A stretch of 64,000 bases of DNA from a bacterium (lineage in GTDB: Bacteria; Bacteroidota; Ignavibacteria; UBA10030): contig JAZDJN010000087.1 in assembly GCA_043803945.1 (NCBI GenBank), forward strand, positions 128,001 to 192,000, read 5' to 3'. Shown here one piece after another: positions 40,968-43,967 of this stretch (its first letter is position 1; every line of letters begins with the position of its first letter). Below the pieces are notes generated by a model that ran no database searches, had not been told where the DNA came from, and saw only the letters and a list, made by a program, of their open reading frames with translations. Position numbers and translations under genes: made by a program.

Positions 40968-42464
40968 ATGAAAGCTAAAAAACTTTTGATGACGGCATAT
41001 CTTCAACTTGGCTATACGGTCCTTTGCGCCGGCCTTGCTTTCGGGTCCTACAGACTAAGCCGGTACCTGATGAAATGTGCCGGTGGTGGCTGAGGGGCTT
41101 CCCAATTTGGGGGTCTCCCAAACTTCTTTTCAGTATTGTTCACCATTCTTGCCGTTTATTTTGTCCTAGCCGCGATACGTTCTGTATTGCTCTCCATGGC
41201 GGAGGAGAACAAACTTCCTCCTGTCATGCGAACCATCCTCCTGAGCGAGTACAGCCTCATCATTAGTAAATTTCTCGATTGGTTCCGTTTGAAGCGCCGG
41301 CATCTCGTAGTTCGTTTCCTGCTGTGGGGCGTCGGAATACTTTTTCTGGCTCAATTGCTGGCGTCGCTTGTCAGTAATTCGGGGAAGGCTGAGATCATTC
41401 CGAATTACGTTCCATGGGAAGATCCACCGTTAGTCCGTTCTCGGGTGGTAACACTTCCTCTCATGGCATCGAATTCTCCGGAAACATATTTGCCTCATTG
41501 CATTACGCTTGTGGATCAGCTCAAAGCTGCCGGAGCAAAACTTGTGGTTGTCGATTACAGAGGCATTCATCCGGATGTCAACGGTCCAGTATTTGACTAT
41601 ACAAAGCGGCTCATGGAAACCGGTATCGTCATTTTTGCAGTGGAACCTCAATGGCGCGGACTCGAATCGAATTTCCCGTTGGCTGAATTTTCAATCGATG
41701 CCGATGTCGCACGCTATGGCCGCATCCATAGATTTACACCGACCGGTGCCGGGAACCATGGAGATGTTCTCATCGAACTCCTTCGGCGAGCGCATCAATA
41801 TCCCGACAGTATGCGGGTGACCATCAAGAAAGAATTCTTCGCCTTCGGCGACTATGCTTTCCCCTGTGATTCTGAAGGCTCGTTTTATATGGATCTGAAT
41901 AATCTGCGGATTACCTCCGATGCAGAGTTGAATCCGGTTCGGGTCATTGAGAAGCCTACCACCCATGAATTGGACTATTATAGCAGTGGCAATTGGTACA
42001 CACCCGATACCACACGATCACCGCTTCTCAACAAGTATGCAAAACGATATAAAGATAAATTTGTACTGTTGCTGAACGAAAACTTCCCCGAACGGCCATA
42101 CCCATATTTTCTCAGTAGCTGCTATCCGCTCGCGTTTGCATCTCTGCAACAGGGGATGCAACCATTTGTGCAATCGAAGTGGCTGCATTATGGGTTTGCT
42201 ATACTCTTCATGCTTCTGATCGGTGTGGTGTGTTACCGGTTGCGACTGAGCTTCGCCATTCCGTTTGTGCTGATACTCACCCTCGGATCATTCTATGCAA
42301 TCGACTGGCTGCTCTACCGCCAGCACATCTTTGTCCAGATGCTGCCATTAACGTTTTCCATCGTCTTAACAACGATAGTGTTTCCTTTGCTCAAGTTTGC
42401 GTTCGATCATTCTGTACAAAAACAGGCCAGCACAAATACAAATGTCGATTCAATAACACAATAA
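40968..42464 (+). CDS. CHASE2-like membrane selenoprotein without output domain (498 aa, Sec42)
   Basis: GAGG RBS, ATG 40968, MKAKKLL...RYLMKCAGGG-TGA(41091)-GASQFGGLP in frame with ORF 41136..42464; LVDQLKAAGAKLVVVDY, KDKFVLL and 3 C-terminal TMs resemble CHASE2. Confidence 0.8.
41106..41122 (+). promoter_or_regulatory. SECIS-like hairpin for TGA 41091
   Basis: TTTGGG-GGTCT-CCCAAA, loop at +19. Confidence 0.75.
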
Positions 42465-42482
42465 TACTCCAAGAAGGTGCGT

Positions 42483-43967
42483 ATGAAAATCGATCACTAT
42501 GTGAAGTCAGCCTATATCCAGTTTGGGTTCTTTCTCGCAAGCGGCGGTATGGCCTACGGCACACACAAACTTGGCCGCTATCTCATGCAGTGCTCCGGCG
42601 GCGGCTGAGGATCTTCCTACTATGGGAGTCTCCCATTCAGCCTCAGAACGTTCTTTATCATTCTCACGGTCTATTTCTTCTTTGCGGCAATTCGTTCACT
42701 ACTCCTTTCACTTGCACGTGCCGGGAAACTGCCTCAATGGATGGAACTGATTCTCATCAGTGAATACAGAATCATTCTTACGAATTTTCTCAACTGGTGC
42801 AGGCGGCAGCAGCGAAAACTCTGGGTCCAGTATGTATGCTGGAGTGTGGTCATCGTAGTCTTTGCTGTGAGTATTGCAACGACTGTCAGGAACAGGAAAG
42901 TCGGCCGGTATGAACATACCGAAAGCATCGCTCTCTGGCCTGACCAACCCATCATGAACCCCTCCCTGATGAGTATCGATGTTTATGACTGCACCAATGA
43001 TGAGGCATATCTCGCTAACTGTCTCGACATGGTCGAGCAATTAAAGCAGGCGGGTACAAAAGCCGTTGTGGTCGATTGCAGATATATTTACCCGTTGGCC
43101 AGTCCCCGCATTACCGAGTATTACCGATCACTCCATGAAACCGGCGTGGTGATTTTTGGCGTAGACGGAGACTGGAGGCCAATTGATACCAATTTCACCG
43201 CTGTTGAAGTTACCGCCAATTTCGACTTGACCCGCTATGGACGAATCCACCGCTTTCTCGCAAGCGGGTATGGCGGATACCCCGACCTCCTCTTTGAGTT
43301 GCTCAGAAGACATCAGGGATATTCAAAGAATGTTTCGTTTACCGTGAAAAAGGGAATTGCTCAGCTTGGCAACTATACGATTCCTCTTGATAAAGATGAT
43401 TCATTCTCCATGGATATTGACTCCAGAAGAATCGTGGCGTATGAAAAGGTGAGTCCTGTGTATGCCATCATGAGCATAAAAACGGGTAAGCTGGAATATC
43501 ACGGATGGAATTCCTACAACGTTCCCGATCCGAAGGAAAAGCCTCTCCTTGAAACATTTGGCAAACGGTTCAAGGATAAATATGTCATGATCACGAATCA
43601 AAGTAGGTATAACTATAGTATCAACAGTAGTGAGTATGGAAAAATTTATCCTGTTGCATTTGAGAACCTGTTGGCGCACGACACCTTTTTGCCGAAACCG
43701 TGGCTAGAGTACGTCGCTATGGGTCTCTTCCTGTTGCTCTGCGCCACCGCGTGCACATGGCTGCGGTTCAGTTATGCTGTACCCTTAGTTCTTGTTCTCT
43801 ATGGTGGATCGGCATATGTGGTTGACTATCTGCAATTTTTCCAGCACTGGTATTTTCCCGGTGCAGCGTTCAACAATGCGGCAATCGCCTCTTCAATTCT
43901 TTTTCCATTATTACGCTTTCTTGCCGATCACAGGAACAACGAGGAACATCATCCGACGCCCCACTAA
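42483..43967 (+). CDS. CHASE2-like membrane selenoprotein, tandem paralog (494 aa, Sec42)
   Basis: ATG 42483, MKIDHY...RYLMQCSGGG-TGA(42606)-GSSYYGSLP in frame with ORF 42741..43967. Confidence 0.8.
42622..42636 (+). promoter_or_regulatory. SECIS-like hairpin for TGA 42606
   Basis: ATGGG-AGTCT-CCCAT, loop at +19; possible lower stem GGCTGAG/TTCAGCC. Confidence 0.75.

Follow-up and report, generated by a model that had tools for sequence, protein, structure and literature searches.

Two tandem CHASE2-like membrane proteins of an Ignavibacteria bacterium with a predicted selenocysteine ahead of their annotated starts

The 64,000-nucleotide stretch of DNA analysed here (the window; contig JAZDJN010000087.1 of assembly GCA_043803945.1, positions 128,001 to 192,000 of the forward strand), from a bacterium of the Ignavibacteria, carries two adjacent genes for CHASE2-like membrane proteins, A and B, which are very probably real selenoproteins whose UGA codon 42 is read as selenocysteine (Sec). 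Gene A occupies 40968..42464 on the + strand from ATG to TAA, in a frame supported by its alignment with gene B, and specifies a read-through product of 498 residues. Gene B follows head-to-tail on the same strand after 18 nt, running from ATG to TAA at 42483..43967 (+), with an alternative GTG start at 42477, and encodes a paralogue of 494 residues; both genes are probably co-transcribed, because they lie so close together. The gene A product consists of a first transmembrane helix (TM1), the Sec loop, TM2, a cytoplasmic linker, TM3, the CHASE2-like domain, three further transmembrane helices and a short tail. The explanation favoured as a whole, namely a selenoprotein with its Sec loop outside the cytoplasm acting as a redox switch, is given a probability of roughly 0.55.

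A sequence-only reading of the region had claimed that both genes begin 5' of the open reading frame calls, each with 41 codons ahead of a TGA at codon 42 in the contexts RYLMKCAGGGUG and RYLMQCSGGGUG (U, Sec), and its coordinates, codon numbers and motifs all turned out to be correct, with the ATG codons located at 40968 and 42483. The TGA triplets, at 41091..41093 (+) in gene A and 42606..42608 (+) in gene B, are the sole stop interruptions of their frames and are taken as Sec codons. Codons 37-43 read C-A-G-G-G-U-G in gene A (41076..41096, +), thus with Cys37 and Sec42, and C-S-G-G-G-U-G in the translation of gene B (42591..42611, +). Calls made under translation table 11 begin 3' of the TGA, at 41136 and 42741, respectively, because the TGA at codon 42 splits each frame. 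When read through, the two products are 39% identical (190/493, E 4e-115) in an alignment that is unbroken across the TGA. Moreover, codons 1-41 share 18 identical residues, 13 of which are specified by different synonymous codons, and the differences at codon positions 1, 2 and 3 amount to 18, 9 and 24; on these counts, the pattern is that of a translated frame under purifying selection. A genome-wide reassignment of TGA was considered and discarded, since 805 of the 2,379 open frames that reach 300 codons or more end in TGA, which is thus an ordinary stop in this genome.

The TGA is also retained in other genomes. A profile of the table 11 parts was searched against 86 genomes of the same family and yielded orthologues in two further genera, represented by the genomes G480 and G481 (the genome of the window is G000 and its contig C87). 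The G480 orthologue, on contig C15, has 493 residues and a TGA at codon 43 in the context ...TYLECAGGGUGRAEFGRVP..., while the G481 gene is divided between two contig ends and reads ...NYLECEGGGUGSAVFGRVP...; both are 31-37% identical to gene A and share the consensus YLEC[AE]GGGUG. In the four-way alignment, Y33, L34, C37, G39, G40, G41, U42, G43, G48 and P51 are invariant, the stretch from Y33 to P51 is the most conserved part of the protein, and Cys37 and Sec42 are the sole Cys/Sec positions invariant across all four genomic members. The gene is found in three of the five family genomes that carry selB and in none of the other 81 (the genomes are related by descent and no formal statistic is claimed for these counts), and a search of the order detected it in none of the other families, with 3 of 277 genomes carrying it. 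A phylum-wide sample of 401 genomes contained distant TGA-less relatives only. The evidence thus supports strongly that the Sec subfamily is one clade, so far confined to selB-carrying members of one bacterial family; related proteins in databases come from sources labelled Bacteroidota/Ignavibacteria.

A search of a 5.8-billion-protein collection with the clade profile added 10 relatives, 47-97% identical to the G480 protein, which are all named hypothetical and have no Pfam domains. All 10 begin 3' of the Sec position, with lengths of 392-458 residues plus one fragment of 178 residues, and two of them begin within ...GRVPKLF..., as gene callers produce such starts at an in-frame TGA. Other searches were less productive: a word-based protein search with the read-through protein returned the truncated record of the window itself only, a pattern search of genome contigs for related loci gave 289 matches, none of them related, and the DNA pattern Y-L-M-x-C-x-GGG-[U/C]-G had no match in genome contigs and one in metagenome contigs (L044). 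The latter was rejected, as it falls by chance on the antisense strand of a gene rich in GC, and the pattern was in any case too strict because the true orthologues have YLEC. A match in genome G479 that seemed to contain two TGA triplets was also set aside, since these are gene boundaries in a sigma/anti-sigma/CHASE2-like operon of the kind described below.

The same data bear on the alternative that A and B are not selenoproteins, but that a 41-codon leader peptide or micro-protein ends at the TGA, a hairpin behind it serves as attenuator or terminator and the main protein starts downstream, or that the genes are simply broken. The downstream starts called for all database relatives and the existence, in the wider family, of short relatives without the N-terminal extension would fit such an arrangement, as would the hairpin of gene A, which together with its T-rich tail CTTCTTTTCA (41106-41131, +) was flagged as terminator-like by a simple scan. 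However, the strongest protein conservation straddles the TGA, with G39-G41, U42 and G43 invariant at 31-39% identity, and none of the four genes loses the frame there. In gene B, the TGA is followed by 44 codons, up to 42741, among which ATG, GTG and TTG are all missing, and these start-less codons match the second membrane helix of gene A in the alignment. Moreover, the candidate downstream starts are not equivalent, that of gene A (41136) lying inside TM2 and that of gene B (42741) after it, and it is implausible that nonsense mutations struck the same codon twice independently. The T-rich tail is missing in gene B, G480 and G481, terminator-like sites are as frequent as in shuffled sequence (7 vs 5.4 +/- 2.5), and the gene is confined to selB-positive genomes of the family. 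The short relatives, which the sequence-only reading had seen as a possible refutation, proved to be distant (about 20-22% identity), while the closer TGA-less paralogues keep the extra helices. All of this makes the alternative very improbable. The gene A hairpin could still have a second use: if it also terminated some transcripts when Sec decoding fails, the coupling would be notable.

Under the selenoprotein interpretation, UGA codon 42 would be decoded by SelA, SelB, SelD and tRNA-Sec, guided by the stem-loop directly 3' of it. The SECIS-like (selenocysteine insertion sequence-like) element of gene A extends over 41090..41131 (+), with an upper hairpin at 41106-41122, the loop GGUCU at 41112-41116 and a lower stem that includes the UGA, and that of gene B over 42605..42646 (+), with an upper hairpin at 42622-42636, the loop AGUCU at 42627-42631 and a lower stem. 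Hairpins occur at the same place in all four sequences, namely UUUGGG-GGUCU-CCCAAA in A, AUGGG-AGUCU-CCCAU in B, UUCGGG-CGUGU-CCCGAA in G480 and CUUCGGG-CGUGU-CCCGAAG in G481. Each is thus a stem-loop directly 3' of the UGA with a conserved apical G/U, the loop consensus being NGUNU, starting 19 nt after the UGA, and the upper stem having 5-7 bp. Unguided RNAalifold on the four sequences recovered the upper hairpin and the lower stem with the UGA (13 pairs, 2 of them changed on both sides), and 85.7% of the cells of the hairpin are paired. The compensatory changes are U-A to A-U and U-A to C-G, the latter at synonymous third positions of Phe/Tyr and Pro codons. The observed pairing was matched by 12 of 500 shuffles and the covariation score by 23 of 500, and slid controls scored lower. 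The loops at +19 and the compensatory stem change that had been noticed by eye were both recovered, the A/B difference being the pair U-A to A-U. In addition, the genes A and B fit a pattern found elsewhere in the genome, provided that a G-U or A-U closing pair is allowed (7- and 6-bp stems with a GUC cap): in selD, two U-x-x-C AhpC/TSA genes and the genes C91:26272 (UGFC) and C85:24187, a stem of 7-8 bp bears a G[GU]U triloop at a distance of 21-28 nt from the U of the UGA. The Sec case is carried by the conservation of the TGA, by the coding signal on both of its sides and by the orthologues, rather than by the hairpin alone.

The decoding machinery is encoded on the same contig. A tRNA-Sec with anticodon TCA was located by ARAGORN at 1548..1644 (+) and scores 62.9 bits, over the cut-off, and selA (593.6 bits), selB (377 bits) and selD (324 bits), all over the cut-off as well, are clustered with it at C87:116333-122193, 6-12 kb before the start of the window. 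Both G480 and G481 have selB and tRNA-Sec over the cut-off. The Sec identity proposed from sequence alone thus gained from TGA and C-x-GGG-U-G being shared by two paralogues and by orthologues of two genera, with selB and tRNA-Sec in all three genomes. The selD gene has one TGA of its own (C87:121300, ...SACAGUAGKV...) and, by that sequence, its product is itself a selenoprotein.

The region seems rich in selenoprotein genes, with at least four further in-frame-TGA genes within 45 kb after the sel cluster. A codon-score scan for in-frame TGAs was used only together with hairpin and Cys filters, since on its own it is too noisy because antisense frames score well. Two AhpC/TSA (TlpA-like) genes, at window positions 27008-27514 (+) and about 19914-20823 (+), have their TGA at 27209 and 20493, in a U-x-x-C motif at the active-site position (SKUREC and HTULEC), followed by a 7-bp hairpin with a G-U loop. 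One of the two proteins has a hydrophobic N-terminus, and both look, by sequence, to be classical extracytoplasmic selenoproteins. Elsewhere in the genome, the candidate G000:C85:24187 (L047 2846-3871) has FG-GAP repeats, the context ...EGGUC... and a hairpin of 8 bp with a GGU loop, and lies 2.5 kb from one sigma-linked CHASE2-like paralogue, and another candidate at G000:C91:26272 reads ...SPTUGFC.... Furthermore, window positions 27816-29852 (+), with TGA at 29121, encode a secreted BNR/Sortilin-Vps10-like beta-propeller protein of 678 residues (...ALEGGGUGNSG...), with a GGGUG core identical to that of genes A and B. All seven matches to it in G479, G480 and G481 have exactly one TGA, EGGGUG recurs in L064 and L065, and the G480 gene lies 3-8 kb from selB and tRNA-Sec. 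To judge by these sequences, the beta-propeller protein is probably another unrecognised selenoprotein family.

The body of A and B is related to CHASE2, although a direct comparison with Pfam CHASE2 (PF05226) is weak: gene A has no match, gene B reaches 13.2 bits against a gathering score of 26.3 (E 0.068), and one of 16 family members matches (E 4.3e-6). The CHASE2-like assignment of the sequence-only reading therefore stood, but the Pfam check proposed for it gave no match for A and a sub-threshold one for B, so that the relationship was recognised by profile-profile comparison. In hhalign, the profile of the 16 members matched the four canonical CHASE2 modules of the genome with 98.5% probability (E 1.5e-15) over 354 columns, query 110-479 against template 24-432, a register that spans TM3, the domain and the last three helices. 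Those four canonical proteins have cyclase or sigma-54-activator outputs, and the relative L015 has an adenylate/guanylate cyclase domain C-terminal to the three helices. In A and B only 18-25 residues follow the last helix and no domain match was found in them, in agreement with the stand-alone architecture that had been proposed. An NCBIfam search of the gene products gave nothing useful. TGA-less relatives of 22-30% identity exist in 6 copies in the genome and in related genomes; the long form has two extra N-terminal helices with respect to canonical CHASE2, and the short form, 5 of the 16 sequences in the alignment, is without them.

An AlphaFold2 model of gene A (mean pLDDT 75.9, pTM 0.72) has helices at residues 2-26, 50-79 and 110-137, an alpha/beta domain and helices at 406-497, and Foldseek found no match to this model in the PDB at E <= 0.001. 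A quick maximum-likelihood tree was calculated from 29 rows, leaving out P0033 (97% identical to G480), the fragment P0042 and the two G481 pieces, with P0034 standing for G481. In this tree, the Sec clade (A, B, G480 and 8 database relatives) is a single branch (SH-aLRT 95), A and B are sisters (SH-aLRT 100), the nearest TGA-less relative is the long form of G000 C12 (SH-aLRT 93) and canonical CHASE2 is separate (SH-aLRT 100). These data give strong support to A and B being a divergent, output-less branch of CHASE2 with an added pair of N-terminal helices.

The CHASE2 relationship also orients the protein in the membrane. The output domain behind the three helices, in canonical CHASE2 and in the relative L015, puts the C-terminus in the cytoplasm and hence the CHASE2-like domain outside; the hhalign register then places the N-terminal end of TM3 and the TM2-TM3 linker inside and, hence, the Sec loop between TM1 and TM2 outside and the N-terminus inside. 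Charge counts fit this arrangement, as the TM2-TM3 linker contains 7-8 Lys/Arg residues (A, B and G481), the Sec loop has 3 in 25-31 residues (A and G480; TM1 of B was not delimited) and the N-terminus of gene A is MKAKK. The Sec loop, YL-x-C-x-GGG-U-G, is thus probably extracytoplasmic, in line with the periplasmic position inferred earlier, and would adjoin the CHASE2-like domain on that side.

A possible context for an output-less module is provided by the TGA-less long forms. An extracytoplasmic function (ECF) sigma factor gene lies directly upstream on the same strand at all 18 loci with upstream sequence (6 in G000, 2 in G018 and one each in G206, G058, G469, G468, G475, G477, G479, G478, G467 and G472; L015 and L016, without upstream sequence, were left out), and a zf-HC2 anti-sigma gene was detected between the sigma and the CHASE2-like gene in 17 of them. 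These operon loci include C12, C18, C85 and C72 of G000 (L045-L048), L049 of G018, and L013, L041 and L053-L060. The short forms are different, as none of the three with about 1 kb of upstream sequence has a sigma gene. ECF sigma factor, zf-HC2 anti-sigma factor and output-less six-helix CHASE2-like protein form a consistent three-gene operon, of which the literature search returned no description in the portions of the sources that were available.

Given this architecture, it may be proposed that Cys37 and Sec42, carried by a flexible glycine stretch, form a reversible selenenylsulfide bond, which would open and close with periplasmic oxidants, thiols or electrophiles. The state of the bond could change the position of the N-terminal pair of helices relative to the bundle of helices in the CHASE2-like module, and the signal would then pass to a membrane partner protein, since A and B have no output domain; such a partner is suggested by the TGA-less paralogues being third genes of ECF sigma/anti-sigma operons. 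A Cys37-Sec42 redox switch that signals to a partner is offered tentatively from sequence, although among the readings considered the selenenylsulfide switch appears to be the most likely function.

The same residue pair could serve otherwise. At the outer face of the membrane, Cys37 and Sec42 may chelate a thiophilic ion, whether Cu(I), Hg(II), Cd(II), As(III) or a species derived from selenite, for sensing or for handing over the ion. On chemical grounds, a Cys and a Sec held five residues from each other by an all-glycine linker would make a plausible bidentate soft ligand, and the two are the very positions kept as Cys/Sec in the four genomic members; a preprint by Haft and Gwadz, in its accessible part, also ties Sec motifs in N-terminal extensions to organometallic chemistry (10.1101/2022.07.06.499078). 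However, none of the three loci has a conserved metal-resistance, transporter or chaperone neighbour, no known metal-binding family was matched and the loop offers no third ligand, so that a soft-metal or metalloid site seems unlikely. Alternatively, A and B could be membrane oxidoreductases or electron relays, in which the pair would reduce or oxidise extracytoplasmic partners, such as the secreted U-x-x-C AhpC/TSA-like selenoproteins, and a Cys of TM4 would relay electrons. The genome indeed encodes several signal-peptide-bearing Sec thiol-disulfide oxidoreductases that need a redox partner, two of them in the window (those with TGA at 20493 and 27209), and Cys422 (gene A numbering), where TM4 meets the cytoplasm, is shared by A, B, G480 and, among the 9 database relatives of full length, by 8, but is missing from the TGA-less paralogues. 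Nevertheless, a Cys near the cytoplasmic face is too distant from the pair at the outer face for direct exchange, the membrane-embedded Cys pair of the DsbD/CcdA kind is missing, P0037 has no Cys422, the bulk of the protein is a module of the sensor type and the G480 and G481 genes do not lie beside thioredoxin-like genes. An oxidoreductase is thus quite unlikely.

Several observations weigh against the redox-switch selenoprotein proposed here, some at the level of Sec itself and others at that of signalling. The case for translation through the UGA and for selenium in the polypeptide is built throughout on sequence, and the TGA of the 10 database relatives is deduced from their N-terminally shortened gene calls. 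No Cys form at the Sec position was found in the genome and its relatives, in the 86 family, 277 order and 401 phylum-sample genomes or among the protein-collection relatives; Cys homologues are usual for selenoprotein families, though not obligatory. The hairpin comparison covers four sequences, folding energies are no better than those of shuffles (z +0.23 to -1.85), and the minimum free energy structure of gene A is a competing fold, that of the 42-nt stretch of gene B being SECIS-like. Hairpins of this type are also common by themselves: 102 of 225,990 TGA triplets have one, and in a comparison of triplets they showed no enrichment behind TGA, being equally common after the others (9.6-11.7 per 10^4). 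Suppression at synonymous sites in the hairpin codons is not significant (4/5 vs 69/180, p 0.07), and Rfam, searched over 40900-44000 with E values as high as 10, gave a chance snoRNA-like match and no SECIS family. A covariance model built from the four elements recovered only its four training sequences in 120 kb that included selD and other selenoprotein genes. With regard to the loop, residues 36-51 were modelled at pLDDT <50, so that the model gives no support for a contact with the CHASE2-like domain. As for partners, none of the three Sec loci lies in a sigma/anti-sigma operon, no neighbour is common to them (window, G480 and G481), and their surroundings give no hint of a redox role or of a partner for this subfamily. 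The window does have a sigma/anti-sigma pair 2 kb upstream of gene A, read from the other strand, with the ECF sigma gene at 38418-38942 and the zf-HC2 anti-sigma gene at 37975-38421, but this sigma factor falls into a different group: it shares only 21-34% identity with the sigmas of the operons, which share 37-58% with one another.

Around the orthologues, no sigma or anti-sigma gene was found within 5 kb in G480 or within 1.8 kb in G481; the G480 gene has a tetratricopeptide repeat (TPR) protein and an AMP-binding enzyme as neighbours, and the G481 gene is preceded by an unknown open reading frame and an aminotransferase class-V fragment. In the window, three small membrane-protein genes (39099-39461, 39470-39853 and 40139-40732, all +) stand between the sigma/anti-sigma pair and gene A. 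They belong to no Pfam family, and two of them were not found near the G480 and G481 orthologues; the first two resemble paralogues by eye. Further upstream, 34809-37927 (+) contains two tandem Lactamase_B_2 (metallo-beta-lactamase-fold) genes and then a Beta-lactamase2 (class A-like) gene, which give no sign of a relation to A and B.

Compared with canonical CHASE2 modules (PF05226) of cyclases, kinases and sigma-54 activators, A and B have the same succession of one helix, an extracytoplasmic alpha/beta domain of roughly 270 residues and three helices. However, they are without an output domain, bear two added N-terminal helices with a Sec in the loop between them, stay below the Pfam gathering score and form a separate branch of the tree (SH-aLRT 100). 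The TGA-less long-form paralogues share the six-helix architecture, including the TM1-loop-TM2 hairpin, at 22-30% identity, but their TM1-TM2 loops are unrelated in sequence and contain neither Cys nor Sec, and a sigma gene precedes 18 of 18 of them as opposed to none of the three Sec loci. With U-x-x-C and C-x-x-U selenoproteins (thioredoxin, AhpC/TSA and DsbA-like), A and B have in common a Sec near a resolving Cys, a probably extracytoplasmic location and a SECIS with apical G-U after the UGA, whereas they have C-x4-U on a glycine linker, no thioredoxin fold, a site between two membrane helices and no Cys-form homologues among those found. In the bacterial SECIS model of the fdhF type, the UGA lies in the lower stem, the upper stem is short and the apical loop has an invariant G-U about 19 nt after the UGA. 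The A/B element resembles this model in its lower stem with the UGA, its short upper stem and its G-U loop, but its sequence is family-specific, without an Rfam match, and its own covariance model finds no other SECIS in the 120 kb.

Another membrane-associated protein, HgcA, has its Sec in an unannotated N-terminal extension, in a CU dipeptide ahead of a corrinoid protein body, according to the accessible part of the preprint (10.1101/2022.07.06.499078). A and B likewise have the Sec 5' of the annotated start, which in both cases would lead to N-terminally shortened database entries, but they differ from HgcA, as far as it is described in that part, in having C-x4-U and a CHASE2-like body. 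CHASE2 is unmentioned in the part of the preprint that was available (10.1101/2022.07.06.499078), and a literature search found no paper combining CHASE2 with selenocysteine. The Sec decoding mechanism is the standard bacterial one, the protein family is new as a selenoprotein and a selenoprotein of the A/B type is previously undescribed.

Annotation pipelines miss the family, as every database entry seen is N-terminally shortened. The broadest conclusion, which is put forward as doubtful, is that A and B would represent the first Sec-based extracytoplasmic receptor, an apparently Sec-only module with a single origin among the CHASE2-like third components of ECF sigma/anti-sigma operons, which would use a Cys-x4-Sec switch on a hairpin of membrane helices to report redox, electrophile or soft-metal stress in the periplasm. 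The bacterial selenoproteins known so far are almost all redox enzymes or proteins with a thioredoxin fold. If the proposal is true, selenium would be used here for signalling and not for catalysis, and the wider family would constitute an undescribed three-part system of ECF sigma control. A Sec in a membrane module of the signal-receptor type, with no Cys version among the sequences recovered, would make sensing at the cell surface a further use of selenium and would supply a chemically defined input site for the poorly understood CHASE2 module, for which few ligands are known. Moreover, the operon of ECF sigma factor, anti-sigma factor and CHASE2-like protein offers a testable entry to signalling by modules that have no output domain of their own.

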